Notes: generated by a model not told the origin, from the sequence alone. Shown: positions 11,922 to 54,388, counted from the first letter of the stretch. The stretch is DNA of 63,484 nt from Gemmatimonadota bacterium (GCA_041499215.1 JBGQJV010000001.1:1-63484), one strand, 5' to 3'. Numbers and translations: made by a program.

Positions 11922-13718
11922 TCAGTCGCCGGAGGCGTCGTCGATGATCCTGGGTGTCACCAGGATAATCAGGTCCTGGCGCTCCTCCTGATCATTGGTG
12001 AACCCGAACAGCTTGCCCACGATCGGGAGGTTGACCAGCATGGGAATGCCGGACTTGGTCTTGGTCACGGTGGTCACGGTTAGCCCACCGATGACCGCGG
12101 TCTCCCCGTCGTTGACCAGCAGCTGGTTCTTGGCGTTCTGCTTCTGGATCGTGAACCCCAGATCGGCGGCGGCCAGGGTCCGGAGATTGGAGCGCTCGGC
12201 CTCGATCTGCAGCATGATCTGCCGGTTGTTGGTGACGTGCGGCGTCACCCTGAGCGAGATACCGGTCTCCTTGAACTGCACGGTCGCCTTGGGCAGCGTG
12301 CTCCCTGTCCCCGACGCGCTGAAGTCGATGATACGGACCGGGATGTCCTCGCCCACCTTGATGATCGCCTCGCGGTTGTCCACCGTGGTTATCGAGGGCT
12401 CGGCCTGGACGTCGGCCAGGGTCAGTTGCTGCAGCGCCTGCAGGAAGCTGGTGAAGGAGTACCCGCCGATCGTGGTGGACCACAGCAGGCTGAGCGCCGG
12501 CTGGGCAATGATGGCGTCCGCATTGGCGATCGCCGCGACGCCGTCACCGGCGAAGACCACGGTGTTCTTGTCGAAGTTGTCCCCGCTGGCCGGATCGACT
12601 CGCGAGCGCAGCTTGTTGAAGAAGGGATTGTCGCTGAGACTCTTGCCGCCGAAGTCGTACTGCAGCCCCAGGGCCTCGAGGTTGGTCCGGTCCACGAAGA
12701 TGATCTTGGACTGGATGGAAACCTGCGGCGTGCGCACGTCCAAGTTCTTCACGAACTCCTGCACATCCCCGATCTTGCTGCGGGTCTCGGTCACGATCAG
12801 CGAGTTGGTGGTGGTGTCCGCAACCACCGCGCCCCGCTTGGAAACGATGGACTTGACGCTGTTGATCATCTGGCTGGCGCTGGCATAGTTCACCGGAATC
12901 ATCCGGGTGGTGAGCGGCTCGGTGGAATCGAGCGCCGCCAGGGTCGCCGGCGAGTCCACCCGGATGATGCCGCCGGGCAACTCGATCGCCTGCAGCCCCT
13001 GGGTGGCCAGCACCGCCGCAAACGCCTCGGTCCAGGGCTGGTTCTTGATCTCGGCGGTTACCTCACCCTTCACATCCTTGCCCAGCACGATCGTACGGCC
13101 GGAGAAGGCGGCGAAGCCGGCCACCACGTCGCCGATGTTGGCCCGGTCCCAGGTCACGGTGATCCGCGCGGCGGGCTGCTGTGCCGCGAGGATGGCAGGG
13201 GCGGGGCCCGGGGGCAGCTCCACCTCAGGGGCGCGGCGCGCCGCCACGGGCGGTTGCAGATCCGCGGGCGAGGCGCTGGACCAGGCGAGGAAGCTGTCGT
13301 CGGCGCCGAACCGCACCCGGATGGCGTCGCCGCTCTTCTCCAGGCGATAGTCCCGCGCGCCGTCGAGGTAGATGGCCACCCGGACCACGTCGGGCCGGAA
13401 CTGGGAGTAGCGGATGTCGCGGATGCCGCCGCGCGCGACCCCGTCGTAGGCTGCCCCGCTCTTCTGCAGGGTGGCGCCGACGACGTCGATCACCAGCCGG
13501 TCGGGCTCGCGCAGGACGAAGTCCCGCACGTCGACGGTCGAGCCCTGGAAGGCGATGACGATTTCGGCGTGACCGGGGGTCGGGACCACGCTCACCGCTG
13601 TCACCTCGGCGCCGGCGGGCGGATCATCAGCCCGGGCGGGCTGGGCCGCGAGAAGCGCTGCGGCACCGAGGCAAAGCCCCAGCGCCAGCGAGGAAACGAA
13701 CAGGAACTTGCGCGTCAT
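11922..13718 (-). CDS. pilQ: type IV pilus secretin PilQ
   Basis: Signal peptide. AMIN-like N-domain. Secretin C-domain (GETAVIGGL ... IPMLVNLPIVGKLFGF). Last gene of pilMNOPQ. Confidence 0.9.
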   Translation of the reverse strand: MTRKFLFVSSLALGLCLGAAALLAAQPARADDPPAGAEVTAVSVVPTPGHAEIVIAFQGSTVDVRDFVLREPDRLVIDVVGATLQKSGAAYDGVARGGIRDIRYSQFRPDVVRVAIYLDGARDYRLEKSGDAIRVRFGADDSFLAWSSASPADLQPPVAARRAPEVELPPGPAPAILAAQQPAARITVTWDRANIGDVVAGFAAFSGRTIVLGKDVKGEVTAEIKNQPWTEAFAAVLATQGLQAIELPGGIIRVDSPATLAALDSTEPLTTRMIPVNYASASQMINSVKSIVSKRGAVVADTTTNSLIVTETRSKIGDVQEFVKNLDVRTPQVSIQSKIIFVDRTNLEALGLQYDFGGKSLSDNPFFNKLRSRVDPASGDNFDKNTVVFAGDGVAAIANADAIIAQPALSLLWSTTIGGYSFTSFLQALQQLTLADVQAEPSITTVDNREAIIKVGEDIPVRIIDFSASGTGSTLPKATVQFKETGISLRVTPHVTNNRQIMLQIEAERSNLRTLAAADLGFTIQKQNAKNQLLVNDGETAVIGGLTVTTVTKTKSGIPMLVNLPIVGKLFGFTNDQEERQDLIILVTPRIIDDASGD

Positions 13719-16013: not shown

Positions 16014-17057
16014 TCACGCGGCGGTACGCAGCGCCAGACCGATCGGCAGCATCAGGAGCGGAGAGATCTCGTCCATGTTCATGGTCGAGAAGACCCCCTC
16101 GGCGACCTGCAGGCGGGCGAGTGGATTGGCCAGCTCGACCGGCAGGCGCAGCCGGTCTCCCAGCACCTTGTTGAGACCCGGAATCCTACCCCCGCCACCG
16201 GTCAGCCACAGGCGGGAGATCCCACTCGCGGACCGGCTGGCCGACTGCAGGAAGGCCGCGGCGCGCTCGATACCCACCGCCAGCTCCTCACCGCGGGTCT
16301 CCAGGAAGGGGTCCAGGATCTCGTTGCGCTCGAAGCCCTGCAGCAGCTGATCGGCTTCCTCGGCCGAAAGCCCCCGCTCCCGCTGGATGTCCTCCCGGAA
16401 GCGCCGGGTCCCGACCGGCAGGTCCCGCGTCAGGACGGGGATGCCGTCCTCCAGGATGTTGATGTTGGTCATCTCGTGGCCGATGTTCACCAGCCCCACC
16501 ACCCCGCGCATCTCATCGGGGTAGTTGACCTCGAACGCGTTGTGCAGGGCAAAGGCATCAACGTCGATAACGGCAGGGGTGAGGCCGGCCTCGGCCAGGA
16601 GAGACACCTTGTTCTCCACCAGCTCCCGCTTGGCGGCCACCAGCAGCACGGTCATCTGCAGCCCTTCGCCGTCGGGGTCCAGGATCTGGAAATCGAGCTC
16701 CACGTTCTCCATGTCGAATGGCACGTGCTGCTCGGCCTCCCAGCGGATCACCTCGCGGGCGTCCGCTTCCTTCATCCGGTCCATCTGGATCTTCTTGATG
16801 ATCACGTCGCGCCCGCCGACCGCGATCACGACCTGCCGTGGCTTGAGTCCGGCGGAGGCGAGCAGGCCCTTGATGGCATCGGCCACGATGCCCGGGTCCA
16901 TGATTTCGCCTTCGACGATCGCGTCGTCAACTACGCTGGTGTAGGCCACCTTGGTCAGGACCGGATCCCCGGCGCCATGGGTAATGGCGACGAGTTTGAT
17001 CAGGCCTGACCCGATGTCCAGGGCCACAGTGGTCTTCTTCCGGCTGAAAAGGCCCAT
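16014..17057 (-). CDS. pilM: type IV pilus assembly ATPase-fold protein PilM
   Basis: Actin-like fold motifs ALDIGSGLIKLV, VNIGHEMTNI, LTGGGGRIPGL. Confidence 0.9.
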   Translation of the reverse strand: MGLFSRKKTTVALDIGSGLIKLVAITHGAGDPVLTKVAYTSVVDDAIVEGEIMDPGIVADAIKGLLASAGLKPRQVVIAVGGRDVIIKKIQMDRMKEADAREVIRWEAEQHVPFDMENVELDFQILDPDGEGLQMTVLLVAAKRELVENKVSLLAEAGLTPAVIDVDAFALHNAFEVNYPDEMRGVVGLVNIGHEMTNINILEDGIPVLTRDLPVGTRRFREDIQRERGLSAEEADQLLQGFERNEILDPFLETRGEELAVGIERAAAFLQSASRSASGISRLWLTGGGGRIPGLNKVLGDRLRLPVELANPLARLQVAEGVFSTMNMDEISPLLMLPIGLALRTAA

Positions 17058-17454: not shown

Positions 17455-17859
17455 CTAGTAGCAGGACGGCGAGCCTTCCTGAACCACCGCCGCGTTCGGA
17501 GCAGGCGCGGTCCCGACGTAGATGCCGCAGGTCTGCGGCGCCTGGGTCACGGCCGGGTTGGTCATCGTGGCGTTCCACCCACCCGCCGTCACGTTGGCCA
17601 GAACCAGCACGTTGCCGGTGCTCGGGGTGAACGCGACCACGCCCGCGGCCTGCACCGCGCCAATCGCCGGCGCGTAGGCGTTGTTGTCCGAGAAGTAGGC
17701 TTCCTGCGCAGTCACCAAGTTCCGCAGGTCCGACTTCATCGAGGCCACGACCGCCTTCTGCTTGGTGTTGGCGAACTTCGGAATGGCGATGGCGGCCAAG
17801 ATGCCGATGATCACCACCACAATCAGAAGCTCGATCAGGGTAAAGCCCTTGCGATTCAT
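17455..17859 (-). CDS. pilA: type IV major pilin (copy 1, 134 aa)
   Basis: Prepilin leader and N-methylation motif MNRKG/FTLIELLIVVVIIGILAAIAIPKF. C-terminal Cys pair (C...SPSCY). GGAGG SD 4 nt upstream. Confidence 0.9.
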   Translation of the reverse strand: MNRKGFTLIELLIVVVIIGILAAIAIPKFANTKQKAVVASMKSDLRNLVTAQEAYFSDNNAYAPAIGAVQAAGVVAFTPSTGNVLVLANVTAGGWNATMTNPAVTQAPQTCGIYVGTAPAPNAAVVQEGSPSCY

Positions 17860-17931
17860 GCTGCCTCCAGATGAAGTACCCATTGAACGCGGACGTCGCG
17901 CAGCGAGACACCAGTACCGATTGCTCAGGGG

Positions 17932-17946
17932 GCAACGCGCATGCCA
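17932..17946 (-). promoter_or_regulatory. sigma54 (-24/-12) promoter candidate for pilin copy 1
   Basis: Minus strand TGGCATGCGCGTTGC, matching TGGCAC-N5-TTGC, about 75 nt upstream of the ATG. pilS/pilR lie nearby. Confidence 0.6.
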
Positions 17947-20689: not shown

Positions 20690-22072
20690 TCATGAAGGGG
20701 CTGGAGTCTGCTGTTCCTCGTACCTGGAGAGCTTCCTATAGAGGGTGGAGGGGTCGATACCGAGGACCTCGGCGGCCCGCGTCTTGTTGCCGCCTTCGGA
20801 TTGAAGCACATACATAATGTAGGCGCGCTCGATGACGTCGAGGGTGGGGTTGGGATAAGTCCGCTCGGCTACCAGGGGATCCTTGCGCCGCTTGGTGATG
20901 CGCTCGGGCAGGGCCGCCGGCTCGATCACGTCACCCCGGGTCAGCACCCAGGCGTGTTCCAGCGCGTTCTCCAGCTCGCGCACGTTCCCGGGCCAGTCGT
21001 AAACCATGACGGCATCGAGCGCCTCCGAGGAGAGCGCCTTGGGCTCGGCGCTGTGCTCGGTGGCCAGCCGCTGGAGGAACGACTCCATCAGCAGGAGCAC
21101 GTCCTCCCGCCGGTCCCGGAGCGGGGGCAGGTGGATGGTGATCACGTTGAGCCGATAGAACAGATCCGAGCGGAAGCGGCCGCGGCGGGCTTCTTCCTCG
21201 AGATCACGGTTGGTGGCGGCGATGATACGAACATCGACCGGGATCGCCTCGGTGGCCCCGACCGGGATCGCCTCCCGCTCCTGCAGCACCCGGAGCAGCT
21301 TGACCTGGAGCGCCGGGGCCATGTCGCCTACTTCGTCGAGGAAGAAACTCCCTCCCCGGGCGGCGGCGAAGAGTCCCTGCTTGTCGCGTACCGCGCCGGT
21401 GAACGACCCCTTCACGTGCCCGAACAGCTCCGACTCCAGCAGGTTCTCCGGCAATGCTCCGCAGTTGATGGAGAGAAACGGACCGTCGGTGCGGTTGGAG
21501 GTATTGTGGATGTAACGCGCCACCACTTCCTTGCCGGTGCCGCTCTCCCCCTGGATCAGCACGGTCGACTCGGTGGGCGCGACCTGTTCCGCCAGCTTCA
21601 TGGTATCGAGGAATCGGCGGGACTTGCCGATCGGCCGGCTGACACTGGCGCGGTCCCGTCGCTTGATCTCCTGCCGCAGGTGCTTGTTCTCGACCCGCAC
21701 CGCGCGGTAATCGGAGGCGCGGCGCAGGATTGCTACCAGCTCGTCATTGGCGAATGGCTTCTGGATATAGTAAAAGGCGCCGGCGTTGACGGCCGCGATC
21801 GCGGTCTGCAGCGAGGCCTGAGCGGTCATCAGGATGACCGGGGTCATCGGGTCCTGCTCCCGGGCCGCGGCCAGGATGTCGAGCCCGGTGACCTGGGGCA
21901 TTCGCACGTCGGTGAGGACTACATCGTGGGTGCCGGCCTTGATCGCCTCGAGACCGGCCTTGCCGCCCTGCGCAGTGGTGACCTCGAAGCCCTCCTTCTT
22001 GAGCAGGATCCTGAGGGTATCGAGGATGCCGGACTCGTCGTCGATGATCAGGAGCGAGGGTTTCTGACTCAT
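20690..22072 (-). CDS. pilR: sigma54-dependent response regulator (PilR/NtrC family)
   Basis: Receiver domain (LLIIDDE...DVRMP). AAA+ GESGTGKE and GSFTGA loop. C-terminal HTH AAEVLGIDPSTLYRKL. Directly upstream of the pilin genes. Confidence 0.8.
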   Translation of the reverse strand: MSQKPSLLIIDDESGILDTLRILLKKEGFEVTTAQGGKAGLEAIKAGTHDVVLTDVRMPQVTGLDILAAAREQDPMTPVILMTAQASLQTAIAAVNAGAFYYIQKPFANDELVAILRRASDYRAVRVENKHLRQEIKRRDRASVSRPIGKSRRFLDTMKLAEQVAPTESTVLIQGESGTGKEVVARYIHNTSNRTDGPFLSINCGALPENLLESELFGHVKGSFTGAVRDKQGLFAAARGGSFFLDEVGDMAPALQVKLLRVLQEREAIPVGATEAIPVDVRIIAATNRDLEEEARRGRFRSDLFYRLNVITIHLPPLRDRREDVLLLMESFLQRLATEHSAEPKALSSEALDAVMVYDWPGNVRELENALEHAWVLTRGDVIEPAALPERITKRRKDPLVAERTYPNPTLDVIERAYIMYVLQSEGGNKTRAAEVLGIDPSTLYRKLSRYEEQQTPAPS

Positions 22073-23739
22073 GCCGCTTCCTCCGCCGCGCGCCGGGCGG
22101 GAAAGAAAATCGTGAAGGTCGTGCCTTTGCCCGGATGCGAATCCACCAGCACCATCCCGCGATGCGCCTCGACGGCGCGCTGCACGATGGCCAGGCCGAG
22201 ACCAGTACCGCCCGCCCGGCCGGTCACGAACGGCTGGAACAACCGCTCCCTAAGCTCCTCGGGAATGCCCGGCCCGGTGTCCTTCACCTCGAGGCACACC
22301 GGCTGCTCGAGGGTACAGCCTCCGGGCAGCTCGGCCACCTTCGCCGGCCGGGTGGTCACGGTTACCACCGCCGGTCCGCGGGCCGCCTGGACCGCATTGA
22401 GCAGCAGGTTGGCCACCACCCGGTGCAGCAGGTCCTCGTCCCCGTCGAGCACCGTCCGGGCCCCCTGCACCCGGATCTCGATCTCCGAGCGGCAGTCGGG
22501 GTGCTCGCGCACCAGCCGCGCGGCGGCGGTGACCACGGCCTGCAGATCCACCGGAACGAATTCGGTCGCCCGGACCCGGGCGAAATCCAGGAACTCCGAC
22601 AAGAGCCGGCTCAGGCGGTCACTCTCGCGAACGATCAGCTGGGCGAGATAGCGGTCGTCTTCGTCTCCATGCGCCGACCGGGCCAGCTGCTCCACCGAAC
22701 TCCGGATGGAGGCGAGCGGGTTGCGGATCTCATGGGCCAGAGATGCCGAGAGTGCCGCAACCGCCTCGAGCCGCTCCGCGCGCAGATTGAGCTCGTTGAG
22801 CCGCTTGAGATCGGAGATGTCGGTGAAGATCGCGGTCACCGAGGGGCGTCCATCGGAATCCCGTTCAAAGGTCGTCGTGGAAAGCCCGATGGGGAAGATC
22901 CGGCCGTCGGCGTGCTGCACGGTACCCTCGCCGCGGCTTACCTTGCGGCCGTGGCGGATGGCGGCCACCAGCGCCGCCCAGAGCTCGGGGGAGCGCAGCT
23001 TGAGCTGATCCAGCACCGGCAGCCCCGTCACCCGCTCGCCGTCCACCTGCAGCAGCCGCTCGGCCATGGGATTGATGAACGCGAGCCGGCCGGCGTCGTC
23101 CACCGTCATGACCCCCGAACGGATGTGCCGCAGAATCTCGTCGGCCTCGAGTCGCACCCGGCGGAGCTCGATCTCGAGCGTCTGGCGCTCCACCCCGGCG
23201 GCCCGGAGCCGCGAGGCCAGCACCCCCACCAGCACGTAGGCGGCAATGAACACCCCGACCTGGCCCCAGAACGCCAGACCCGGGATCGATCCCTGGAGCC
23301 ACATGCTGTCCGCGAAGTATGCTCCCGCGATGGTGAGGGCCACCAGCAGACCGCCACCGAAAGTCATCAGGAGGGCGTAGGCGGCGATGATCAGGATGTA
23401 CAGCGATGGGAACGGACTACGCGGCCCTTCGGTGAAGTGCACCAGCAGGGTGGTGAGTCCGATGTCCCCCAGGGCCTGCAGGTAGAAGAACAGCTGGCCC
23501 GGGCTCCGGTGCCGGAGCCAGACCACCCAGTAGCCGTACGCCGTAAGCACAAAGGCGAACAGCACCCCGAGGCTCACCAGAAAGGAGAGCCCCGGCTGGC
23601 TGGTCCACTCGAGCGACGCGAGTACCAGGGTCGTCACCGCGAGCACCAGCCGGGCTCCGAAGACCCAGGAAAGCAGTGTCTTCTGGTCCGGCAGGGCGCG
23701 GGCACCCTGGCGTGGCGGGGAGTTGGCCATCGAAGACAA
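22069..23739 (-). CDS. pilS: membrane sensor histidine kinase (PilS-like)
   Basis: About 6 N-terminal TM helices, a PAS-like region, H-box SLAHEIRNPLASI, and HATPase motifs DTGPGIP and GTGLGLAIV. 4-nt overlap with pilR. Confidence 0.75.
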   Translation of the reverse strand: MSSMANSPPRQGARALPDQKTLLSWVFGARLVLAVTTLVLASLEWTSQPGLSFLVSLGVLFAFVLTAYGYWVVWLRHRSPGQLFFYLQALGDIGLTTLLVHFTEGPRSPFPSLYILIIAAYALLMTFGGGLLVALTIAGAYFADSMWLQGSIPGLAFWGQVGVFIAAYVLVGVLASRLRAAGVERQTLEIELRRVRLEADEILRHIRSGVMTVDDAGRLAFINPMAERLLQVDGERVTGLPVLDQLKLRSPELWAALVAAIRHGRKVSRGEGTVQHADGRIFPIGLSTTTFERDSDGRPSVTAIFTDISDLKRLNELNLRAERLEAVAALSASLAHEIRNPLASIRSSVEQLARSAHGDEDDRYLAQLIVRESDRLSRLLSEFLDFARVRATEFVPVDLQAVVTAAARLVREHPDCRSEIEIRVQGARTVLDGDEDLLHRVVANLLLNAVQAARGPAVVTVTTRPAKVAELPGGCTLEQPVCLEVKDTGPGIPEELRERLFQPFVTGRAGGTGLGLAIVQRAVEAHRGMVLVDSHPGKGTTFTIFFPARRAAEEAA

Positions 23740-26602: not shown

Positions 26603-29257
26603 CTACTCCGACCGCAACGCTTCGGTGGGATCAATCCGGGTTGCGCGCCGTGCCGGGAGGTAGCTGGCCACCAGGGTAACCAGGGCAAGCAGTCCGCCCG
26701 CGCCCAGCAGCGCGACCGGATCCCCCGGCCCGATACCGAACAGCAGGCCCCGCAGCGCCTGCCCCAGTCCCAGCGAGAGCAGGCCGCCGACCGCGATCCC
26801 CGCGCCGGCGAGGATGGCACCCTGCCGAATCACCATTCGCCGGATCTCTCCGGGACCGGCGCCGAGGGCCTGGCGGATGCCGAACTCGCGGCTCCGCTTG
26901 ACCACATTGAACGAGACCACCCCATACAATCCCACCACCGCTACCAGCAACGCAGCCGCGGCAAAGGCGCCCAGCAGTATTAGCGGCACCCGCCTTGCAG
27001 CCACCGCCGACGCGGACTCGACTTCAGAGCTGAGCGGAGCAACCTCGTAGAGCGGCACCCCCGGATCCTGTCCCCGGATGAGCGTCCTGACTTCCCGGGT
27101 CAGGGCCGCCGGCGCGAGGCTCGACCGGATCACCAGCGACATCCGGGTCGAGGGATACTGGAGGTGCGAGAAGTAGATCGTCGGCGGGGGCGGAGACTCG
27201 AGCGCACCGGTCCGGACGTCTCCCACCACCCCCGCGATGTCCCAGGTGGAGTCGGGGAATGCGTAGAACCGCAGTCGCCGGCCAAGCGGGCTTGCTCCAG
27301 GGAAGAGCTTTGCCGCCAGGGAGGCGTTGAGCAGGACCGACGGCCGGTGGGCAGAGTCATCACGCGTATCGAGCAGCCGGCCGGCGACCAGCGGCACAGC
27401 CAGGGTCGGGAAGTAGCCCTCGCTCACCGCCCGGGTGGCTGCTTCGAGCCGGGCGGAGGGCTCGGGCTCCGGCTCGCCTTCGATGTGGAATGTGTTGGTG
27501 TTGCCGCCGTTGAGCGGCAGATTGGTGATTGCCGCTGCGCTCGTCACACCAGGAATGCGCCTGATTCCGGCAAGCAGGTCCAGGAAGAACCGCTGCTGTG
27601 AGGCAGTGGCCTGGTACCGCGGGCCCGAAAGACTGATCCTGCCCGACAGAATCCGATCCGGGACAAAGCCAAGATCGAGGCGAAGCAGCTCGGCCAGGCT
27701 CCGACCGACCAGCGCGGTCCCGGTCAGCAGCACCAGGGTCAGCGCGATCTCGGCCACGATCAGGCCGTCCCGGAGTCTGAGCAGGGAGCCAGCAGCCGTG
27801 GTCCTCGGGCCTCGACCCATCAGACCGCCACCGTCGGCCTTGAGCGCGTGAACGATCGGCCCGAGCCCTAGGGCGAGGGTGGTTCCGGTTGCAAGAAGCG
27901 CGGTGTACCCCAGCACGGTCCGATCGAGTTCCGCCGACCGCAGGTACGGCAGGTGCGCCAGCAGACTTCCGGGGAGCGCTCCCACGACCAGCCGGACTCC
28001 CGCATGCGCGAAGGCAAGTCCGAGCAGACACCCGATGGCCACAAGGAGAACACTTTCCATCAGCAGCTGACGGGCAAGGCGCCACCGCGACGCACCCAGA
28101 GCAGCCCGTACCCCCATTTCCTGCTCGCGCCCCAGAGCACGCGCCAGCAGCAGGCTGGCGATGTTGGCGCACGCGATCGCCAGGACCAGCACCATGGCGG
28201 CGAAGAGCGCCATGAGAACCGGCCGCACGGTTCCCAGGAGCTGGTCCCGCAGCGGAATCACCGCCGACTGACGGCCCTGGTTGCTCGCGGGATACTCCGC
28301 CGCGAGTCGCGTCATGATCTGGTCGAGCTCTGCGCCGGCCTGTCGGAGAGTGACCCCGTCGCGGAGCCGACCGACCACATTCACCCAGTGGTTGGCCCGC
28401 TCGGAGCGCCGCTCAGCGGTCCGCCCCAGCGTGAGCCAGAAGTCCACCTCGCCGAGCGGCGCAAAGTGGAATCCGGCCGGGAGCACTCCGATGATGCGGA
28501 ACAGGCGGCCATCCAGGATGAGGGTGCTGTCCAGCGCGGCTGGATCAGCGCCGAAGCGAGCCTGCCAATACGCGCGGGTCAGCACCACCACCGCCGCGCC
28601 GTCCGGCACATCCTCCTCGGGGCGAAAGCCGCGGCCCAACACCGGTGCCGCCCCCAGCATCTCGAAGAAGCCGGGGGTGGCCCGACCCGCGGCCCGGACC
28701 TCGGCTCCCTCGGGTCGGGCGACGACCACATCGCTCTGGTTGTAGCCTGCCATCGCGGCGAAGGACTTGCCCTGCGACCGCCAGTCCAGAAAATCGGGGT
28801 AGGAGGCTTCGCTGCGGGCGTCGCCCTTGGTCTCCCACAGATGGACCAGGCGGTCGGGGTCGTCATAGGGCAGACCACGAAGGATCGCCGCCCGAAGCAC
28901 CGTGAAGGAGGCGGTGTTTGCGCCGACCGCGAGCGCGAGTGTGAGTATCAGCAGCGCCGAGAAGCCGGGCGCACGGACCAGCAGCCGGATGCCAAAGCGC
29001 AGGTCACTCCATAGATCGGCCCACAACTCGGCGCGCTGGAGGCGATGGGCGTTCCCTTGGTCGATCCGTGCCAGTTCCTTCCGCGCGGCCTCGAGATCCC
29101 CGAACTCCCGCTCGGCGGCACGGCGGGCATCCTCTGGCGGGAGGCCCCTGGACATGAGCTCCTCCGCTCGTGCCTCCAGGTGGAAGGCCAGCTCGTCCTC
29201 GATCTCCCGTGCCGTGCCGTGCCAGCGTGGCAGCACGCGCCGCAGCCAGCGGATCAT
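26603..29257 (-). CDS. duplicated FtsX/MacB-type ABC permease (ADOP family)
   Basis: 884 aa. Characteristic N-terminus (REIEDELAFHLEARAEELMSRGLPPEDARRAAEREFGD). Two permease halves, each with 4 TM helices. 4-nt overlap with padR. Confidence 0.8.
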   Translation of the reverse strand: MIRWLRRVLPRWHGTAREIEDELAFHLEARAEELMSRGLPPEDARRAAEREFGDLEAARKELARIDQGNAHRLQRAELWADLWSDLRFGIRLLVRAPGFSALLILTLALAVGANTASFTVLRAAILRGLPYDDPDRLVHLWETKGDARSEASYPDFLDWRSQGKSFAAMAGYNQSDVVVARPEGAEVRAAGRATPGFFEMLGAAPVLGRGFRPEEDVPDGAAVVVLTRAYWQARFGADPAALDSTLILDGRLFRIIGVLPAGFHFAPLGEVDFWLTLGRTAERRSERANHWVNVVGRLRDGVTLRQAGAELDQIMTRLAAEYPASNQGRQSAVIPLRDQLLGTVRPVLMALFAAMVLVLAIACANIASLLLARALGREQEMGVRAALGASRWRLARQLLMESVLLVAIGCLLGLAFAHAGVRLVVGALPGSLLAHLPYLRSAELDRTVLGYTALLATGTTLALGLGPIVHALKADGGGLMGRGPRTTAAGSLLRLRDGLIVAEIALTLVLLTGTALVGRSLAELLRLDLGFVPDRILSGRISLSGPRYQATASQQRFFLDLLAGIRRIPGVTSAAAITNLPLNGGNTNTFHIEGEPEPEPSARLEAATRAVSEGYFPTLAVPLVAGRLLDTRDDSAHRPSVLLNASLAAKLFPGASPLGRRLRFYAFPDSTWDIAGVVGDVRTGALESPPPPTIYFSHLQYPSTRMSLVIRSSLAPAALTREVRTLIRGQDPGVPLYEVAPLSSEVESASAVAARRVPLILLGAFAAAALLVAVVGLYGVVSFNVVKRSREFGIRQALGAGPGEIRRMVIRQGAILAGAGIAVGGLLSLGLGQALRGLLFGIGPGDPVALLGAGGLLALVTLVASYLPARRATRIDPTEALRSE

Positions 29258-29595
29258 GACTGGGCCTCCCCCAGGCGGAGCACCCGGAACACCGCCTCCG
29301 CATACGCGGTCCAGGCGGCGGATTTCTCGCGCAGCGCCCGCCGGCCCTGCGGGGTGAGCCGGTAGTACTTGGCCCGGCGGTTGTTATCGGAGAGACCCCA
29401 CTCCGAGACGATCCACTCGCGCGCTTCCATCCGGTGAAGCGCCACGTACAGCGCCCGATCCTCTACCACCAGCGAGGAGTCGCTTGCCGTCCGGATGGTC
29501 CGGGCAACGGCATACCCATGGGCCGGCCCGGCCGCGAGTGCCTTGAGGATGAGAAGATCGAGAGTGCCCTGAAGCAGGTCGAGCGAAGACGGCAT
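29254..29595 (-). CDS. PadR family transcriptional regulator
   Basis: LLQGTLDLLILKALAAGPAHGYAVARTI ... KYYRLTPQGRRAL. Confidence 0.85.
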   Translation of the reverse strand: MPSSLDLLQGTLDLLILKALAAGPAHGYAVARTIRTASDSSLVVEDRALYVALHRMEAREWIVSEWGLSDNNRRAKYYRLTPQGRRALREKSAAWTAYAEAVFRVLRLGEAQS

Positions 29596-29760: not shown

Positions 29761-30057
29761 ATGCCCGTCTCAGGCACCGCAATTGCCAGCGCGCTCAACG
29801 CGCTCAGACTGTACACCCGGCGGGTCGATCAGGCGGCCGAGCGGATTGCCTCCGCGGGGTTGTTCGACGTCACGACCGAGCCCGCGCCGAGCAGTGACCC
29901 TGCCACACCCCCCGCTGCGGCACCGGAGCCGGTGGATCTTGGCGGCGCGATGGTCGACATGATGATTGCCCAGCGGGCATTCGCCGCGCAGCTCAGGGTG
30001 CTGCGGACCGCGGACGAAATGCTCAAGGAGACCGTGGAGCAGACCAGGGCGAAGTAA
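29761..30057 (+). CDS. small protein with FlgC/rod-protein-like N- and C-terminal motifs (98 aa)
   Basis: N-terminal AIASALNALRLYTRRVDQAAERIAS. C-terminal VDLGGAMVDMMIAQRAFAAQLRVLRTADEMLKETV resembles the flagellar rod C-terminal signature. GGAG lies 6 nt upstream of the ATG. Confidence 0.5.
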   Translation: MPVSGTAIASALNALRLYTRRVDQAAERIASAGLFDVTTEPAPSSDPATPPAAAPEPVDLGGAMVDMMIAQRAFAAQLRVLRTADEMLKETVEQTRAK

Positions 30058-30168
30058 GGCGGAAAAGGCGAGAAGGGCGGAAGGACGGGAGTCTCCTCCC
30101 GCCGTTCCGCCCTTTCCGCCCTCCCGCCCTCCCGCCTTGCCGCCTTGCCGCCTTGCCGCCTTGCCGCC
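30058..30168. repeat. repeat-built imperfect hairpin filling a convergent spacer (GGCGGAA-type arm, TTCCGCC-type arm, then GCCGCCTT x4)
   Basis: About 25-nt arms with 21/25 complementarity by hand alignment, around the loop tctc. Followed by ccttgccgccttgccgccttgccgccttgccgcc. Confidence 0.75.
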
Positions 30169-30555
30169 TTACTCCACTATCACCTCCCCAGTCATGAACG
30201 GATGCGGCTCACAGTGGTAGACGAAGGTCCCCGGCACATCGAAGGTGACCGTATAGGTTACCCCCGGCTCGAGCGGGTCCGAGCTCCATTTCCCGCCGTC
30301 AGCGGTGGAGGTATGGGCCGGAGTCCCGGCGGGCTCACAGTTGACCCAGGTCACCTTCCCTCCCGCCCGCACCCGCACAGGAGTGGGCGCGAAGGCGAAC
30401 CCGCCGATCGCAACCACCGTCGAGCCGAACTGGCTCGGGCTGAGAATCACGCTACAGGAGCCGGAGGAAGGCCCGGTCGCGTTGCTGCGCTCCGACACGC
30501 AGCCCGCGGCTGCGAGGACGAGGCCGAGGAGTCCGACGACCAGAGTGGCCCTCAT
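30169..30555 (-). CDS. small cupredoxin lipoprotein (amicyanin/pseudoazurin-like)
   Basis: Lipobox LVLAAAGC. Type-1 Cu ligand pattern H (AHTST) ... C-E-P-H-P-F-M. Start at MRATLVV (Met57 of the ORF). ATGA overlap with the upstream gene. Confidence 0.8.
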   Translation of the reverse strand: MRATLVVGLLGLVLAAAGCVSERSNATGPSSGSCSVILSPSQFGSTVVAIGGFAFAPTPVRVRAGGKVTWVNCEPAGTPAHTSTADGGKWSSDPLEPGVTYTVTFDVPGTFVYHCEPHPFMTGEVIVE

Positions 30556-31646
30556 TTGACCACCACCGTGGCTGTCATGAAGGGATGCGGAGTGCAGTGC
30601 AGCGGGTAGCTGCCCGGCCTGGTGAAAGTGTATCGCCACACCTGGCCGCTCTCGATCATCCCCGAATCGAAGCTGGTGTCGTCCGCGGTGACGGTGTGCG
30701 GCATGGGGTCCTCGTTCTTCCACTCGATGGTGGTCCCCGCCGCGATCTCAAGCTGCTCCCCGGTGAACTTCAGACCCTGCATCGTGGTCTTCACCACGGC
30801 CCCGACCACCGGCCCCGACGGGACGCTGCCCGGTGCTGCGGACGCAGCCGCCCCCGAGGCAGCGGGTGCCGCGGCGGCGGGCCTGGGCTTGTGGCCGAAG
30901 TACCGCGCCAGAGTGACCGGGATCGTGAACTCGAACCCGTACCGCGTCAGGGTCGCCCCGCGCGAGGCGCCCTGCAGCGTCGCGGTGTTGGTGTTGCTGG
31001 CGTGCAGTGAAATCGTGTGCGGGGTATTGGGAATCGCGATGGCCAGGCCGGCGCTCCACGCCGCCTTCTCCCCCCTGGCTCGATCCGGCGACGTGAGGCT
31101 CACCAGGTCGCCGTGCAATCCCAGGTGCCGGGTCAGCTTGAACGCCGCGCCGCCTCCCACGGCCAGCTGCGCGCTGCCGTTGTGGACGTATGGGTTCGAC
31201 AGTGCCCGCCCGACCGCGACCAGCCGGAGAGGACCTGCCCGCCGTGCGAGCGACAGTTCGCCATCAAGGCCTTTCGCCGCGATGTTCCACCCGACCTGCC
31301 CGCCCACGTCCAGCGGGAATCCGCCGGCCTGCGTAAGTGGCTGGACCCGACCGAAGAACTCCCACTCGTTAGGATACGCCGGCGCGAGTGTGGAATTGGT
31401 CGCGTAGTTGAACCCGATGGTCGTACCCTGGAGCAGGGAGAACGCCACGAGGAAGGTCGGGAAGTTGGTCAATTTCCTGACCGGCGCCGGGCTCTTCACG
31501 AAGCGGTGCAGGAAGTTGAACTGCACCGTGCCCGGATGGATGACCCAGTCGCCGGAGACATTGGGCGACCGGTCGAGGTTGCCCTGGGCCGCGAGCGATC
31601 CGGTTGCCGGCGCCAGCAACAGAACGACCAAGACTCCACGCTTCAT
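30552..31646 (-). CDS. beta-barrel-like N-domain (DUF5777-like?) fused to a C-terminal cupredoxin
   Basis: Signal peptide. About 250 aa with alternating beta-strand patterns (YGFEFTIPV). An Ala/Pro linker. Then HTVTADD ... C-T-P-H-P-F-M. Confidence 0.65.
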   Translation of the reverse strand: MKRGVLVVLLLAPATGSLAAQGNLDRSPNVSGDWVIHPGTVQFNFLHRFVKSPAPVRKLTNFPTFLVAFSLLQGTTIGFNYATNSTLAPAYPNEWEFFGRVQPLTQAGGFPLDVGGQVGWNIAAKGLDGELSLARRAGPLRLVAVGRALSNPYVHNGSAQLAVGGGAAFKLTRHLGLHGDLVSLTSPDRARGEKAAWSAGLAIAIPNTPHTISLHASNTNTATLQGASRGATLTRYGFEFTIPVTLARYFGHKPRPAAAAPAASGAAASAAPGSVPSGPVVGAVVKTTMQGLKFTGEQLEIAAGTTIEWKNEDPMPHTVTADDTSFDSGMIESGQVWRYTFTRPGSYPLHCTPHPFMTATVVVK

Positions 31647-31677
31647 TCTGGCTCCGATGGCCGTGCTGCCGATGGCA

Positions 31678-33948
31678 CTATTGCACCCGGATCCGGCCGT
31701 TCATGCCCTGGTCCTTGTGGATCGTGCAGAAGTACTTGTACTCGCCCACCTGGGGAAACACCCGGGACGGGCTCGAGCCGGGTGGAGAATCCGGGATGTT
31801 CCCGCCGGGCGGAGCGAGGGTCTCGAAGGTGATGTTGTGGGTGGTCCCCGAGACCTGCCACACCACCGTTTCGCCCGGCCGGATGGCGATATCGTCAGGA
31901 TTGAACTTCACGCCCGGAGTGGCGATCACCGCTCCGACCTGGCTACCGACAGTGATCGTCGACGTGGCACTGTGCGTGGTGCCGCCGGCCGTGAGCGTGG
32001 CGGTGACCGTTGTCGAGCCGACACCTCTGCCCGTCACCAGTCCGGTGGGTGTCACGGTGGCCACGGCGGTGCTGGAGCTGCCGAACACCGGGCCCGGGAG
32101 CCCCACCATCGCCGCCCCGGTCTGATCGAGCGGCGTGGCGGTGAGCTGCACCAGACCGTTGAGCTGCACGAACGGCGCCTGCGGGGTCAGCTCCAGTGCG
32201 GTGTAAGTCGGCGTACCGGTACTGCCGGTCACCACCACTGTCCCGGACATACTGGAGTGCCTGGTGCAGACGTAACCGTAGCTGCCGGCCGAGGTGAAGG
32301 TGCGGGACTGGCTGCTCCCCGCGGGCTGGTCGGGGATGTTCCCACCGGGCGGCTGCGCCGCGGTGAAGGTGACGTTGTGAGTGTTCCCTGAGAACTGCCA
32401 GGTGACCGTCCCGCCCGCAGCGATGGTCACGCTCGGCGGCGCGAAGGTCAGATTCGGCGTGGTCACCGTCGCTCCACCGGGCACCGGCGCACTGACCAGC
32501 ATCGTGGCCGTGGCCGAGTGAGTCACCGCACCACTGCTGATCGTCACCGTGATGTTGGCGGTGCCGGCCCCCATCGCCGTCACCATCCCGGCGCCATTCA
32601 CCGTGGCGATCGCGGGGTCACCGCTGCTGAACCCCGGGGCCGGCAGCCCCGTCATCGGCACCCCGGTCTGGTCCAGCGGCACGGCAGTCAATTGGACCGT
32701 CCCGCCCAACAGCAGCGTGGCGGTTGCCGGCGTCACCGCAACCGACGAATAGACTTGCGCCTGGCCGGACTGGACGATCACCTGCCCCGTCATGTTGTTG
32801 TGCCGGGTGCACTCGTACGTGTAGACCCCCGCGGTGGGGAAGGAACGCTGCACCGTGCTGCCGATCGCCTGGTCGAGCACGTCCCCCAATGGTGGCACAG
32901 GGCCTGGCAGCCAGGTCACGTTGTGTACCGCGCCGGAGAACTGCCAGGTGACTGTCTGTCCGGCCAGGATCGTGACCGTGCCCGGAGCGAAGGTGAGGTT
33001 CGGCGTGGTCACGGTGGCACCCGCAGCAGGCGCGCTCACCCGGATGAGGCTGGTGGCTGCAATGGTCGTCCCACCGCTCGTGATCGTGGCCGTGATCGTA
33101 TCCACGCCAGCGCTCACAGCGGTGACCAACCCGTCTGAGGCCACGACCGCCACAGTCGCGTTGGAAGTGATGAAACTCGCGCTGGGGAGGCCCGCAATCG
33201 GGACGCCGACCTGGTCGAGCGGGGCCGCCGTTAGCCTGAGCGTGTCTCCGGAAAGGAGCGAGACGTCGGCGGGCGCGAGCTGCACCGAGGTGAACACTTG
33301 CTGCTGACCCGACTGCACGATCACGGTGCCGCGCATATTCGCGTGCCGGGTACAGTCGTAGACGTACGTGCCCGCGCTCGGGAAGGCCCGGGAGACGGTG
33401 GTCGGCGGCACCTGGTCAGGAATGCCGCCGCCGGGAGGCGCTGCAGCGGCGGTGAAGGTCACATTGTGCACCGCGCCCAGGAAGATCCAGGTCACGCTGT
33501 CGCCCTGCGCGATGGTGATCGTCGCCGGCGCGAAGGTGGTTCCGACGGTGGTCACCGGGTGAGCCGGCGCGCCCGGCGCAGAGGCGGTCACCACCACGAT
33601 TATGGTATCCGCGTGGGTCGTACCGTTGGCCGTGAGACTGGCGAGCACCCGGGTGCGGCCCACCGCTCCGCCGGTCACTACCCCATCGACGACGCCGGCG
33701 ATCGTGCTGTCCTCGCTCGCCCAGCTGGCCGCCGGAAGACCGCCCATTGCAATGCCATCCTGGTCCTTCGGTGTCACCGTCAGCTGCACGGCCTCACCGA
33801 CCGCCACCGAGATGCTGTCGGACGATATCGATAGACCGCTGAACTCAACCTGCGGCTGGATCGGCCCGGCGGCCCCACCACCCCCGCAGCTGCCGAGCAG
33901 CATCACCACGAGCGCCTGACAGAGCAGGAAGAGATGCGGACGGCGCAT
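31678..33948 (-). CDS. lipoprotein with four tandem [Big_2-like Ig domain + cupredoxin] modules
   Basis: Lipobox MLLGSCGG. Four repeats end in CTRHANM, CTRHNNM, CTRHSSM and CTIHKDQGM, each with an upstream HNVT(F/W)/HNITF His. Start at MRRPHLF (Met22 of the ORF). Confidence 0.75.
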   Translation of the reverse strand: MRRPHLFLLCQALVVMLLGSCGGGGAAGPIQPQVEFSGLSISSDSISVAVGEAVQLTVTPKDQDGIAMGGLPAASWASEDSTIAGVVDGVVTGGAVGRTRVLASLTANGTTHADTIIVVVTASAPGAPAHPVTTVGTTFAPATITIAQGDSVTWIFLGAVHNVTFTAAAAPPGGGIPDQVPPTTVSRAFPSAGTYVYDCTRHANMRGTVIVQSGQQQVFTSVQLAPADVSLLSGDTLRLTAAPLDQVGVPIAGLPSASFITSNATVAVVASDGLVTAVSAGVDTITATITSGGTTIAATSLIRVSAPAAGATVTTPNLTFAPGTVTILAGQTVTWQFSGAVHNVTWLPGPVPPLGDVLDQAIGSTVQRSFPTAGVYTYECTRHNNMTGQVIVQSGQAQVYSSVAVTPATATLLLGGTVQLTAVPLDQTGVPMTGLPAPGFSSGDPAIATVNGAGMVTAMGAGTANITVTISSGAVTHSATATMLVSAPVPGGATVTTPNLTFAPPSVTIAAGGTVTWQFSGNTHNVTFTAAQPPGGNIPDQPAGSSQSRTFTSAGSYGYVCTRHSSMSGTVVVTGSTGTPTYTALELTPQAPFVQLNGLVQLTATPLDQTGAAMVGLPGPVFGSSSTAVATVTPTGLVTGRGVGSTTVTATLTAGGTTHSATSTITVGSQVGAVIATPGVKFNPDDIAIRPGETVVWQVSGTTHNITFETLAPPGGNIPDSPPGSSPSRVFPQVGEYKYFCTIHKDQGMNGRIRVQ

Positions 33949-34301
33949 CGGCCCCTCGAGATACAGGATGGTCCGGGGAGTTGCGAATAGACATTCATGA
34001 GGCAGGCGCAAGGGATCTCTCTCCCGCCCGCATCACGGCGGAGGAGTTCGACGCAACCAGCGTTCCGAGGAGAGCCCAGCACGGGATTTGGGTCCGGAAA
34101 CCGAGGGCAACTGCCTGCCACACCATGCACTTAGTGAGAGGGCGGCGGCGCAGTAAGCCGGTGAAGAACCGCCTCGCAACTGCTGCGCAGCGGTACGCCT
34201 GTACCGAATCGAGATGGAAAGGGATGACACTCCCAATAGGAAAGCGGGGAACGGGCATGGTACCCCATTCCCCGCCGCAGGGACGCCTGCTCTCCTCGGA
34301 G

Positions 34302-52030: not shown

Positions 52031-53239
52031 CTACTGTACCGCGTTCATCATGTCGAAGATCGGCAGGTACATGGCGACTACCATGCCGCCGACGATGACA
52101 CCGAGCACCACGATCATCATCGGCTCCATCAGGGAGAGCAGCGCGCTCACCGCGACGTCAACTTCTTCATCGTAGAAGTCCGCGATCTTGGAGAGCATCT
52201 CGTCCAGACCGCCGGTCTGCTCGCCCACCGCGATCATCGAGATGACCATCGGCGGGAAGACCTTCGACTTCTCCAGCGGACCCGCGATGGTCTCACCGCC
52301 CGCGATCGAATTGCGGGATTCCATCACTGCGTCGTGGATCACCCGGTTGCCGGCGGTCTTGGCGGTGATCTCCAGACCGTCCAGGATCGACACGCCGGAG
52401 CTGATCAGGGTGCCGAGCGTCCGGGTGAAGCGAGACACGGCGGACTTGCGGAGCAGGTCGCCGAGCACCGGGGAGTTGAGCAGCATCTGATCGATCCGGA
52501 GCCGCCCGTCGGAGGTACTGTAGTAGCGGCGGAGGCCGATGACGATGCCGGCGATGATGAGGATGAGCATCCACCAGTAGTTGATCAGGAAGTCCGACAT
52601 CCCGATCACGATACGGGTGGGGAGCGGCAGCTCCATGCCCACGCTGGCGAACATCTTCTGGAAGGTCGGGATCACGAAGATCAGCAGCACCGCTACCGCG
52701 ATGGCCGCGACCGACATGATCACGCCCGGGTACACCATGGCACCCTTCACCTTCCGGATCAGGGCGTCGCTCTTTTCGAGGAAGGTGGCGAGCCGGAGCA
52801 GAATGGTGTCGAGAATACCGCCGGCCTCACCGGCGGCCACCATGTTGACGTACAGCTCGGTGAAAGCCCGGGGGTGCTTGCTGAACGCATCGGCCAGGGT
52901 GTGGCCGCTCTCCACGTCGAACACCACCTGTCTGGTGACCTCGGCGAGCGCCGGATTCTCCGTCTGCCGGGCCAGGATGTCGAGCGACTGGACCAGGGGC
53001 AGGCCCGAGTTGATCATCGTGGCGAACTGCCGGGTGAAAATCACGATGTCCCGGGTCCGGATGCCCTTGCGCTTGAGAAAACCGAACGAGAGCTGCTTGG
53101 GCTGCTCCCGCACGTTTACCACGATCATCTTCTGCTGCTTGATGTGCTTGAGCACCTCGTCCCGGGTGGGCACGTCGAGGGTGCCCTTGAGGATCTGGCC
53201 GGTGCTGGCATTCCGCGCGGTGTACTCGAAGACTGGCAT
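52031..53239 (-). CDS. pilC: type IV pilus inner-membrane platform protein PilC (GspF family)
   Basis: Duplicated GspF domains (LATMINSGLPLVQSL..., LGTLISSGVSILDGL...). C-terminal PIFDMMNAV. Confidence 0.9.
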   Translation of the reverse strand: MPVFEYTARNASTGQILKGTLDVPTRDEVLKHIKQQKMIVVNVREQPKQLSFGFLKRKGIRTRDIVIFTRQFATMINSGLPLVQSLDILARQTENPALAEVTRQVVFDVESGHTLADAFSKHPRAFTELYVNMVAAGEAGGILDTILLRLATFLEKSDALIRKVKGAMVYPGVIMSVAAIAVAVLLIFVIPTFQKMFASVGMELPLPTRIVIGMSDFLINYWWMLILIIAGIVIGLRRYYSTSDGRLRIDQMLLNSPVLGDLLRKSAVSRFTRTLGTLISSGVSILDGLEITAKTAGNRVIHDAVMESRNSIAGGETIAGPLEKSKVFPPMVISMIAVGEQTGGLDEMLSKIADFYDEEVDVAVSALLSLMEPMMIVVLGVIVGGMVVAMYLPIFDMMNAVQ

Positions 53240-53257
53240 CGTCGGGCTCCTGGTCCC

Positions 53258-54388
53258 TTAGCGGCGGGCGGCGGGGCGGCCGGCGGGCTTGTCCGCGGCA
53301 CCCATTTCCTGCTCCTCGAGCGGCGTCTCGCCGCACATGCGGAGCAGCTCGTTGGGATCACCCGAGGCGCGCATGCACTCCTCGAGCGTGACTTCCCGGG
53401 TCATGTACAGCTGGAACAGCGAATCGTTCATGGTCTGCATGCCGTGTTTCTTGCCGGACTGCAGCGCCGAGTAGATCTGGTGCACCTTGTCGTCGCGGAT
53501 CAGGGCCCGGATGGCGGGGGTGCAGACCATGATCTCGCAGGCCATCGCCCGTCCCCGTCCCTTGGCCTTCTGCAGCAGCGTCTGGGTCACGACCCCCTCG
53601 AGCACGAAGGCGAGCTGGGCGCGGACCTGCTGCTGCTGGTTGGACGGGAAGACGTCGATGATGCGGTTGATCGACTCCGCCGCCGAGTTGGTATGCAGCG
53701 TGGCCAGCGCCAGGTGGCCGGTCTCGGCGATGGTGAGGCAGGCCGCGATGGTCTCCAGATCGCGCAACTCGCCCACCAGGATCACGTCGGGGTCCTCCCG
53801 CAGGGCGTACTTGAGCGCGCTGGCGAAGCTCCTGGTGTCGGTCCCGACCTCGCGCTGGTTGACGATGCAGGCCTGGTGCCGGTGGATGAACTCGATCGGG
53901 TCTTCCACCGTGATGATGTGACCCTTGCGCTCCTTGTTGATCTTGTCGAGCACCGCCGCCAGCGTGGTCGACTTGCCCGACCCGGTGGGGCCGGTGACCA
54001 GGATCAGGCCGCGGGGCCGTTCCGCCAGCTTGCTGAGGACCGGCGGCAGCCCCAGGTCCTGGAAGGTTCGCACATTGAACGGAATCATCCGGATGACGAT
54101 GGCCACGCAGCCGCGCTGCTTGAAGACGTTGCCGCGGAACCGGGCCAGGTTCTGGATGCCGAAGGAGAAGTCCAGCTCGTCCTCGGTCTCGAACCGTTTC
54201 TTCTGGTTCTCGGTGAGCACTGAATAGGCCAGCGACAAGGTGTCCTTGGGCGTCAGCACCTCCGACGCCGAGGCGCTGGTGATTTCGCCGTCAACACGGA
54301 GCTTGGGCCGCTCCCCCGCGGTGATGTGCAGGTCCGAGGCGTCCTTCTCGATCATTTCCTCGAGCAGCGCGCGCAGGTTCACCGTCAT
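53258..54388 (-). CDS. pilT: twitching motility (retraction) ATPase PilT
   Basis: DLHITAGERP, GPTGSGKSTTLAA, GHLALATLHTNSA, AIRALIRDDKVHQI. Start at MTVNLRA (Met75 of the ORF). ATGA overlap with the pilB stop. Confidence 0.9.
   Translation of the reverse strand: MTVNLRALLEEMIEKDASDLHITAGERPKLRVDGEITSASASEVLTPKDTLSLAYSVLTENQKKRFETEDELDFSFGIQNLARFRGNVFKQRGCVAIVIRMIPFNVRTFQDLGLPPVLSKLAERPRGLILVTGPTGSGKSTTLAAVLDKINKERKGHIITVEDPIEFIHRHQACIVNQREVGTDTRSFASALKYALREDPDVILVGELRDLETIAACLTIAETGHLALATLHTNSAAESINRIIDVFPSNQQQQVRAQLAFVLEGVVTQTLLQKAKGRGRAMACEIMVCTPAIRALIRDDKVHQIYSALQSGKKHGMQTMNDSLFQLYMTREVTLEECMRASGDPNELLRMCGETPLEEQEMGAADKPAGRPAARR

Follow-up and report, generated by a model that had tools for sequence, protein, structure and literature searches.

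We examined three adjacent genes, designated A, B and C, in a stretch of DNA from a Gemmatimonadota bacterium (GCA_041499215.1 JBGQJV010000001.1:1-63484; hereafter the window, 63,484 nucleotides (nt) in full, whose numbering is used throughout). An original prediction, made by reading the DNA alone, had described three co-directional genes with six type-1 copper (cupredoxin) domains, one of them fused to a β-barrel, and had suggested a copper-based envelope electron conduit. The three open reading frames (ORFs) are arranged in tandem on the minus strand (A, 31678-33948; B, 30552-31646; C, 30169-30555), in a region with a G+C content of about 68%, and encode products of 756, 364 and 128 amino acids (aa), respectively. 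ORFs A and B show the G+C bias by codon position that real genes have in this region. Public records hold exact 756-, 364- and 128-aa products with the same gene boundaries, and the sole name given to them is 'plastocyanin'. The genes, their predicted domains and the flanking sites are listed below.

31678..33948, minus strand: gene A, predicted lipoprotein (lipobox LLGSC, Cys21) of four tandem modules, each an Ig-like (Big_2) domain plus a type-1 cupredoxin
33316..33861, minus strand: A module 1, residues 30-211; ligands H161, C199, H202, M205 (CTRHANM)
32773..33315, minus strand: A module 2, residues 212-392; ligands H342, C380, H383, M386 (CTRHNNM)
32230..32772, minus strand: A module 3, residues 393-573; ligands H524, C561, H564, M567 (CTRHSSM)
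31681..32229, minus strand: A module 4, residues 574-756; ligands H704, C741, H744, M749 (CTIHKDQGM, a loop of plastocyanin length)
30552..31646, minus strand: gene B, 364 aa; signal peptide, predicted outer-membrane barrel of 12 strands, Ala/Pro tether, amicyanin-like cupredoxin
30897..31583, minus strand: B barrel domain, residues 22-250; 12 predicted β-strands, DUF5777-like family
30798..30896, minus strand: B Ala/Pro-rich tether, residues 251-283 (33 residues); low predicted local distance difference test score (pLDDT), 35% pairwise identity
30555..30797, minus strand: B cupredoxin domain, residues 284-364; ligands H317, C351, H354, M357
30169..30555, minus strand: gene C, predicted lipoprotein cupredoxin, 128 aa; ligands H81, C115, H118, M121
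30058..30128, minus strand: long GC-rich hairpin 3' of C, between convergent genes; likely transcript end
34243..34276, minus strand: terminator-like hairpin after the upstream hydrolase gene, setting that gene apart from A-B-C
34053..34066, minus strand: GGAACG-N4-TTGC block upstream of A, from an alignment of 8 relatives

Copper domains and the predicted barrel

Searches against Pfam identified four Copper-bind stretches in A (1.5e-37; 128 bits against a cut-off of 21.2), the best of which spans residues 495-573 in module 3, and one stretch of the same family (PF00127) each in B (residues 286-364; 1.3e-10, 42 bits against 21.2) and C (residues 46-128; 4.6e-11, 43.5 bits against 21.2). The full ligand set His...Cys-x2-His-x2/4-Met is present in six of the six domains, in agreement with the domain count of the original prediction, and the copper ligands are kept in the orthologues of both B and C. 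The nearest NCBIfam models to the copper domains of the three products are halocyanin, plastocyanin and amicyanin, with amicyanin the best match for B and C. The ligand loop of B, CTPHPFM, is identical to that of Paracoccus amicyanin, and a Foldseek comparison of the modelled C-terminal domain of B with amicyanin gave template modelling (TM) scores of 0.72-0.78 and a root-mean-square deviation of 1.4-3 Å, placing the predicted ligands as in amicyanin. By hidden Markov model and ligand set, and for the domain of B also by fold, all six domains are predicted to be type-1 (blue) copper cupredoxins.

The modules of A are about 181 aa each and mutually 41-56% identical. Pfam recognized three Big_2 (PF02368) stretches among them (1.7e-19; 70 bits against a gathering score of 22.8); the fourth Ig-like domain goes unscored by Pfam alone and is supported by the 41-49% identity of module 4 to the others, so that the reading of A as a lipoprotein built from four Ig-like plus cupredoxin modules stands. 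A predicted lipobox, LLGS-C21, ends its signal peptide, and residue +2 of the lipoprotein is Gly. Relatives of A at ≥90% identity occur in 756-, 617- and 605-aa versions, which suggests variation in length or module number among closely related strains. For C, the predicted lipobox is AAAG-C19; of 74 C orthologues, 66 have a lipobox-like motif, the Cys column being at least 95% conserved, and C34 and C73 are also conserved. The small lipoprotein cupredoxin that had been proposed for this gene, with a start overlapping the stop of B, is therefore borne out.

In an AlphaFold2 model of B (pLDDT 82), 12 strands (residues 40-245) are followed by a disordered Ala/Pro segment (residues 251-283) and the cupredoxin (residues 284-364), matching the predicted fusion of a barrel to a cupredoxin through an Ala/Pro linker. 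For a second model, made of the N-terminal domain alone, the Foldseek matches were outer-membrane barrels only, mostly 12-stranded, and included FapF, the COG4313 channel 4rl8, the KdgM-type porin 8xua (TMq 0.63), an invasin β-domain and OmpG. Most of the strands alternate between a hydrophobic, less conserved face and a polar, strongly conserved face that includes R48, E94, E96, R100, D113, D128, E130, R147, D180, R235 and E239, as expected of a transmembrane barrel whose interior is conserved. The last strand, YGFEF, is similar to a β-signal. The N-terminal domain of B is thus modelled as a 12-strand outer-membrane β-barrel, in line with the porin-like membrane barrel first suggested for it.

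The assignment of this barrel to DUF5777 fared less evenly. Homologues of B that are about 55-75% identical to it (P0014, P0023, P0036, P0087) pass the gathering score of PF19089 (25-28 bits against 23.1), one of them covering nearly the full model, whereas the N-terminal domain of B from the window, searched alone against Pfam at E≤10, gave no match of any kind. The label 'DUF5777-like' therefore holds through the homologues only. PF19089, described in Pfam as 'Membrane bound beta barrel domain', is an uncharacterised family, and at E≤0.001 it matches only 5 of 84 representatives of the barrel family introduced below.

The C-terminal copper domain of B is most likely periplasmic. We infer this topology because an even number of strands puts both termini on one side of the membrane, because the Ala/Pro hinge resembles that of OmpA, and because relatives of B that carry cytochrome c in place of the cupredoxin must receive their haem in the periplasm. 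Known outer-membrane proteins with an even strand number have both termini in the periplasm.

The stop codon of B and the start codon of C overlap by 4 nt (ATGA), and the gap between A and B is 31 nt. Because of this overlap, the short A-B gap and the two flanking hairpins, A-B-C looks like a single, self-contained operon bounded by hairpins, in which B and C are very likely co-transcribed. The hairpin at 30058-30128 has a folding energy of -70 kcal/mol (z = -5.2), and none of 200 shuffled sequences was equally stable. The interval between C and the convergent ORF at 29761-30057 (30058-30171) contains four tandem GGCGGCAA units followed by this hairpin of about 70 nt. A scan of the operon and its flanks against Rfam found no riboswitch, only sub-threshold microRNA-like matches to the terminator hairpin, which are spurious.

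No site was found in a sigma-70 promoter scan. The GGAACG-N4-TTGC block is the sole conserved element in an otherwise unalignable region upstream of A in the 8 relatives, and its GG-N10-GC spacing resembles that of a sigma-54 -24/-12 promoter, which we treat as a lead only. The generic sigma-54 score of the block is weak (5 of 8 consensus positions). Such scoring gives about one match per 4.5 kb in this GC-rich DNA and was dropped as evidence; the phylogenetic footprint alone was kept.

Conservation of the barrel and its carriers

Homologues of B number more than 2,100 at E≤0.001. A scan of one genome per species gave 249 matches, of which 80 loci were kept; all are assigned to Gemmatimonadota (Gemmatimonadales or Longimicrobiales) except one labelled Chloroflexota. 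The barrel is fused to a cupredoxin in all 80 loci, and a C-like gene lies directly downstream of B in 74 of the 76 with enough sequence, while an A-like gene, with 1-5 copper modules, is found upstream of B in only 40 of 74. Since B is always fused, C nearly always next and A often missing, the conserved unit is B plus C and not the trio: the co-conservation anticipated for the three genes holds for B and C and fails for A. Gene A is a variable accessory partner, and the trio a clade-specific elaboration. A small plastocyanin-like gene directly upstream of B is a feature of 14 Longimicrobiales-type loci.

Clustering of all neighbouring ORFs in the 80 loci revealed no other family in more than 18 of them and no oxidoreductase that is consistently adjacent, so the genes do not reliably sit beside a known oxidoreductase. 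The neighbours that do recur, namely a DUF983-like protein, a histidine kinase, a sigma-54 activator and an S4/HSP15 protein, reflect lineage synteny. None of CopA, CopC, CopD, CusF and multicopper oxidase recurs as a neighbour. In the window itself, the statement that no cytochrome, nitrite reductase, oxidase or copper chaperone is adjacent is true for the parts scanned; the scanned genes elsewhere in the 63 kb are housekeeping genes and genes for a type IV pilus.

In six loci (L024, L029, L034, L037, L039 and L065), all lacking an A-like gene, a gene of the glucose/sorbosone dehydrogenase (GSDH) type lies about 100 nt upstream of B and divergent from it; the example in L039 occupies 6588-7853 on the minus strand (PF07995, 455 bits). 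The dehydrogenase is a possible electron donor in that clade. In one genome, a TonB-dependent receptor gene lies directly upstream of the barrel gene. In the metagenomic protein P0127 (1045 aa), the ORF of a TonB-dependent receptor runs into a barrel-cupredoxin gene that keeps its own signal peptide; most likely, these are two adjacent genes merged through a lost stop codon or an assembly error.

Beyond the copper fusion, a profile of the barrel alone retrieved 345 cluster representatives, 84 of which were scanned for fused domains. Copper-bind was found in 49; in three, a monohaem cytochrome c occupies the corresponding C-terminal place; the rest are standalone barrels or fragments. The cytochrome-c-fused subfamily comprises at least 23 clusters at 90% identity, and in three of five such loci (L088, L089, L091) the fused gene is followed by a small cytochrome c gene, mirroring the succession of B and C. 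Standalone barrels also adjoin haem carriers. One such gene (L083) overlaps a gene for a lipoprotein cytochrome c, and is retained although that cytochrome has its own lipobox; another (L084) lies downstream of a lipoprotein with a cytochrome c domain; and a third (L092) is followed by a ferric reductase of the NOX/FRE type and then by a cytochrome c. Within the small sample of nine informative loci outside the main set, the barrel is paired with a haem carrier in eight. Because its relatives carry or adjoin cytochrome c in place of the cupredoxin, the barrel family is specifically tied to one-electron carriers, copper or haem, and the carrier is interchangeable.

The barrel is better conserved than its cupredoxin. 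In the cupredoxin-fused set, the barrel has a pairwise identity of 0.66, the cupredoxin one of 0.59 and the linker one of 0.35, and H47, R48, E94, N121, D128, R147, D180, W197, H210 and N218 are near-invariant across standalone, copper-fused and haem-fused barrels.

Several further observations concern individual relatives. The three genes of L092 (8001-10556; Gemmatimonadota metagenome-assembled genome GCA_040882465.1) form an apparent operon, and the same genes occur in L093; the reductase has Ferric_reduct, FAD_binding_8 and NAD_binding_1 domains and the cytochrome c is 145 aa long. This trio could be an electron path from cytoplasmic NAD(P)H to the outer membrane. In L087 (3266-6122), a gene for the copper nitrite reductase NirK begins 26 nt after the cytochrome-fused barrel gene, and its product has an N-terminal cupredoxin extension (TIGR02376, 325 bits against 296). 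Cytochrome-c-fused barrel genes lie beside haem-biosynthesis genes in L089, L090 and L091, with hemA and hemC directly upstream in L089 and L090, and with hemD-, hemN- and hemE-type genes and a UPF0093 gene also nearby in L090; these neighbours could reflect lineage synteny or a functional link. A metagenome scan with the cytochrome-fused subgroup returned one locus only, and a homologue search from the standalone barrel P0263 returned one relative only. A parallel between A and the lipoprotein of L084, which combines Ig-like and cytochrome domains, was dropped as a mere impression, since the BLASTP comparison was not significant (E = 0.14-0.6).

Role of the barrel and alternative explanations

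We propose that A-B-C is one unit encoding envelope-anchored blue-copper carriers, with B and C as its core and a barrel that has a redox-linked function of its own; to this reading, taken jointly, we assign a probability of about 0.5. Expressed from a single transcript, the three products would each be an envelope-anchored type-1 copper electron carrier. B would be a Sec-exported outer-membrane barrel whose amicyanin-like domain is suspended in the periplasm by a flexible tether of 33 residues, C would be its lipid-anchored amicyanin-like partner, and A would be an optional extra whose Ig-spaced cupredoxins raise the local number of carriers. The copper centres would exchange single electrons on colliding with one another at the inner side of the outer membrane. 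The electrons would be supplied or consumed by the barrel itself, which could take in or bind a small solute with redox activity, a metal ion for instance, or could contain a redox site. Since the Ig domains separate its copper centres, A is unlikely to act as a rigid electron wire.

The barrel is probably not a passive anchor and has a function that needs a one-electron carrier, because it is the most conserved part of B, because the same polar residues are kept in standalone and cytochrome-fused relatives, and because a one-electron carrier is fused to the barrel, or encoded next door, in nearly all the relatives examined. A role as anchor only fits poorly with the high conservation of the barrel and with its persistence in L083 beside a lipid-anchored carrier. 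Most plausibly, it handles a small redox-active solute. Type-1 copper centres have high potentials, which would favour taking electrons from the substrate, while the NOX-type neighbour in L092 suggests outward electron flow in that relative.

Other observations weigh against this proposal. The barrel contains neither a redox cofactor motif nor a conserved Cys, and a candidate two-histidine metal site was set aside, as strand position places H47 and H210 near opposite rims. One informative standalone locus (L086) has no carrier nearby, and the sample from outside Gemmatimonadota is small, at nine informative loci. The NirK gene that follows the cytochrome-fused barrel in L087 provides a context fitting an ordinary donor role, as does the lipoprotein pyrroloquinoline quinone (PQQ) dehydrogenase of the glucose/sorbosone type divergent from B in six loci.

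These last two contexts, which occur in a minority of loci, together with the amicyanin-like character of the type-1 sites and the absence of a visible redox motif in the barrel, are what the principal alternative has in its favour. According to this explanation, the cupredoxins are ordinary periplasmic shuttles for enzymes encoded elsewhere, such as NirK, NosZ, cytochrome oxidase or PQQ dehydrogenases, for which cupredoxins are standard donors or acceptors, and the barrel is a mere anchor, as lipid is for Neisseria Laz. It accounts less well for a barrel that is more conserved than its carrier and whose polar residues are near-invariant in standalone, copper-fused and haem-fused forms, for a standalone barrel beside a carrier with its own lipid anchor, and for the lack of any enzyme adjacent in more than 18 of the 80 loci. 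We regard ordinary shuttling as possible, if on the unlikely side.

A copper conduit across the outer membrane, the reading of the original prediction, would link periplasm and exterior as MtrCAB does with haems. It would require the barrel to export or thread the C-terminal domain, in the manner of an inverse autotransporter, or to contact a surface-exposed A. The N-terminal 12-strand barrel and C-terminal β-sandwich of B do reproduce the inverse-autotransporter layout, with 4e1t among the fold matches, and A is a lipoprotein with Gly at +2; Big_2-rich lipoproteins are often surface-exposed. The resemblance of B to intimin and invasin is nonetheless a generic one of fold (TM about 0.5 to 4e1t), and B matches no barrel model in Pfam, that of the inverse autotransporters included. 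The cytochrome-c-fused relatives would have to pass a covalently haem-loaded protein through a 12-strand pore, and the same lumen residues are kept in standalone barrels that have nothing to thread. A is moreover missing from nearly half of the loci, and its Ig spacers hold the copper centres far apart. We judge such a conduit improbable. A sheathed form, as in the porin-cytochrome complexes, is excluded by barrel size: 12 strands cannot sheathe a folded 10-kDa cupredoxin as the 26-strand MtrB does MtrA. What the data show is a barrel of the outer membrane that has its own relay of electron carriers; the 'envelope electron conduit' is hypothetical, and the interpretation in the original prediction is supported in part.

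The barrel might alternatively serve copper handling, as a copper channel resembling PcoB or CopB, with cupredoxin-fold proteins that bind or oxidise copper in the manner of CopI, a cupredoxin-like resistance protein, or PcoC. The small size of the 12-stranded barrel and the acidic, conserved face of its lumen would suit such a channel, as would the TonB-dependent receptor gene directly upstream in one genome. Yet the replacement of the cupredoxin by cytochrome c in relatives makes no sense for copper trafficking, and on this ground we rejected a copper-resistance reading. In addition, none of the copper proteins CopA, CopC, CopD, CusF and multicopper oxidase recurs among the neighbours of the 80 loci, A, B and C have no Met/His-rich tracts, and the ligand sets are those of classical electron-transfer type-1 sites. 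Copper handling is accordingly the reading to which we give least credence, as very improbable.

The reading that we prefer, of a barrel with its own redox-linked function served by anchored carriers, can also be taken further. The barrel might be a minimal outer-membrane redox gate that takes in or binds a redox-active metal or small molecule, exchanges electrons with its tethered carrier and possibly holds a non-covalent cofactor. B and C, with assistance from A, would then be the functional equivalent of Cyc2 built on copper. We consider this extension doubtful. If it were true, Gemmatimonadota could oxidise or reduce extracellular or incoming substrates (Fe, Mn, Cu) at the cell surface, and in other lineages the same device would operate with cytochrome c.

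The literature searched contained nothing on this architecture or on DUF5777, in keeping with the view that no characterised system of this kind was known; the nearest known concepts are Cyc2 and the lipid-anchored cupredoxins of the outer membrane. In Cyc2, as in B, one polypeptide with a signal peptide joins a small one-electron carrier to an outer-membrane β-barrel. The Cyc2 of Acidithiobacillus hands electrons to the soluble cupredoxin rusticyanin. As a fused cytochrome-porin Fe(II) oxidase, Cyc2 is characterised by an N-terminal CXXCH cytochrome, a PXFAR[Q/K][T/Y] motif and a 16-strand porin, and its porin is poorly conserved while its haem domain is conserved (Keffer et al. 2021, PMC8406198). 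In B, by contrast, a long tether leads to a carrier at the C-terminus, the barrel, with 12 predicted strands, is the better-conserved part, and there is no CXXCH; the two families show no homology, and B falls outside the definition of Cyc2.

Copper proteins anchored to the outer membrane include Neisseria Laz (lipid-modified azurin) and AniA, and Laz-type cupredoxins combine a lipid anchor with an Ala/Pro-rich linker while serving periplasmic respiration. The anchor of Laz is lipid only, unaccompanied by a dedicated barrel gene or by tandem Ig-cupredoxin arrays. Compared with both Cyc2 and Laz, the system described here differs in domain order, barrel size, barrel conservation and the existence of unfused forms, and there is a real chance that the role of the barrel is something new.

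Other comparisons are more distant. MtrCAB and the PioAB/MtoAB complexes are likewise three-part systems, in which a barrel in the outer membrane is accompanied by a periplasmic carrier and by a lipoprotein bearing several redox centres. Their barrels, however, have 26 strands and enclose a decahaem protein with haems that reach across the membrane, whereas B has 12 strands and lacks haem motifs, each copper centre here stands singly and far from the next, and A is not co-conserved with B. With Paracoccus amicyanin (TIGR02657), B has in common the fold and the C-T-P-H-P-F-M loop; amicyanin is soluble, while B is anchored to a barrel and C to lipid. An assignment of the copper domains to amicyanin proper was rejected, as B and C score 53.6 and 54.0 bits, far under the cut-off of 110.2 for the TIGR02657 equivalog. 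No mau (methylamine dehydrogenase) genes are among the scanned genes of the window, nor are they recurrent neighbours in the 80 loci.

Gemmatimonadota rank with the most abundant bacteria of soil, and their envelope redox chemistry is little known. A phylum-wide module of barrel and blue-copper carrier, with a haem version in other lineages, would represent an unrecognised coupling of the outer membrane to electron transfer. The database label 'plastocyanin', given to all three proteins, conceals the presence of a barrel. If the barrel handles a metal or other redox substrate, the module would join Cyc2, the Mtr/Pio/Mto complexes and Cyt572, the few systems known, as a route based on copper. 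Even on a modest reading, it offers a first functional context for DUF5777 and a clear, testable protein pair.

Other genes and sites in the window

A near-consensus sigma-54 promoter-like site, TGGCATGCGCGTTGCC, is located at 17946 on the minus strand, upstream of a small ORF (17455-17883) that is syntenic with pilin-like (N_methyl) genes in L001 and L002. Near this site, a histidine-kinase ORF and a sigma-54 activator ORF (20690-23739) were assigned by synteny with the same two loci. Also present in the window are pilM (16014-17057), a secretin gene (11922-13718) and probable pilus ATPase genes (52031-56100).

Just beyond the operon, a gene for a PadR-like regulator is followed by a large gene for a permease of the MacB/ADOP type (26603-29595, minus strand; identified by eye from the translation). 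This pairing is common in Acidobacteria and Gemmatimonadota, and the two genes appear unrelated to A-B-C. The convergent ORF at 29761-30057 on the plus strand encodes 98 aa, comprising little beyond the C-terminal domain of a flagellar basal-body rod protein (Flg_bbr_C, 42.8 bits), and is syntenic beside the cupredoxin pair in L001, L002 and about nine further loci.

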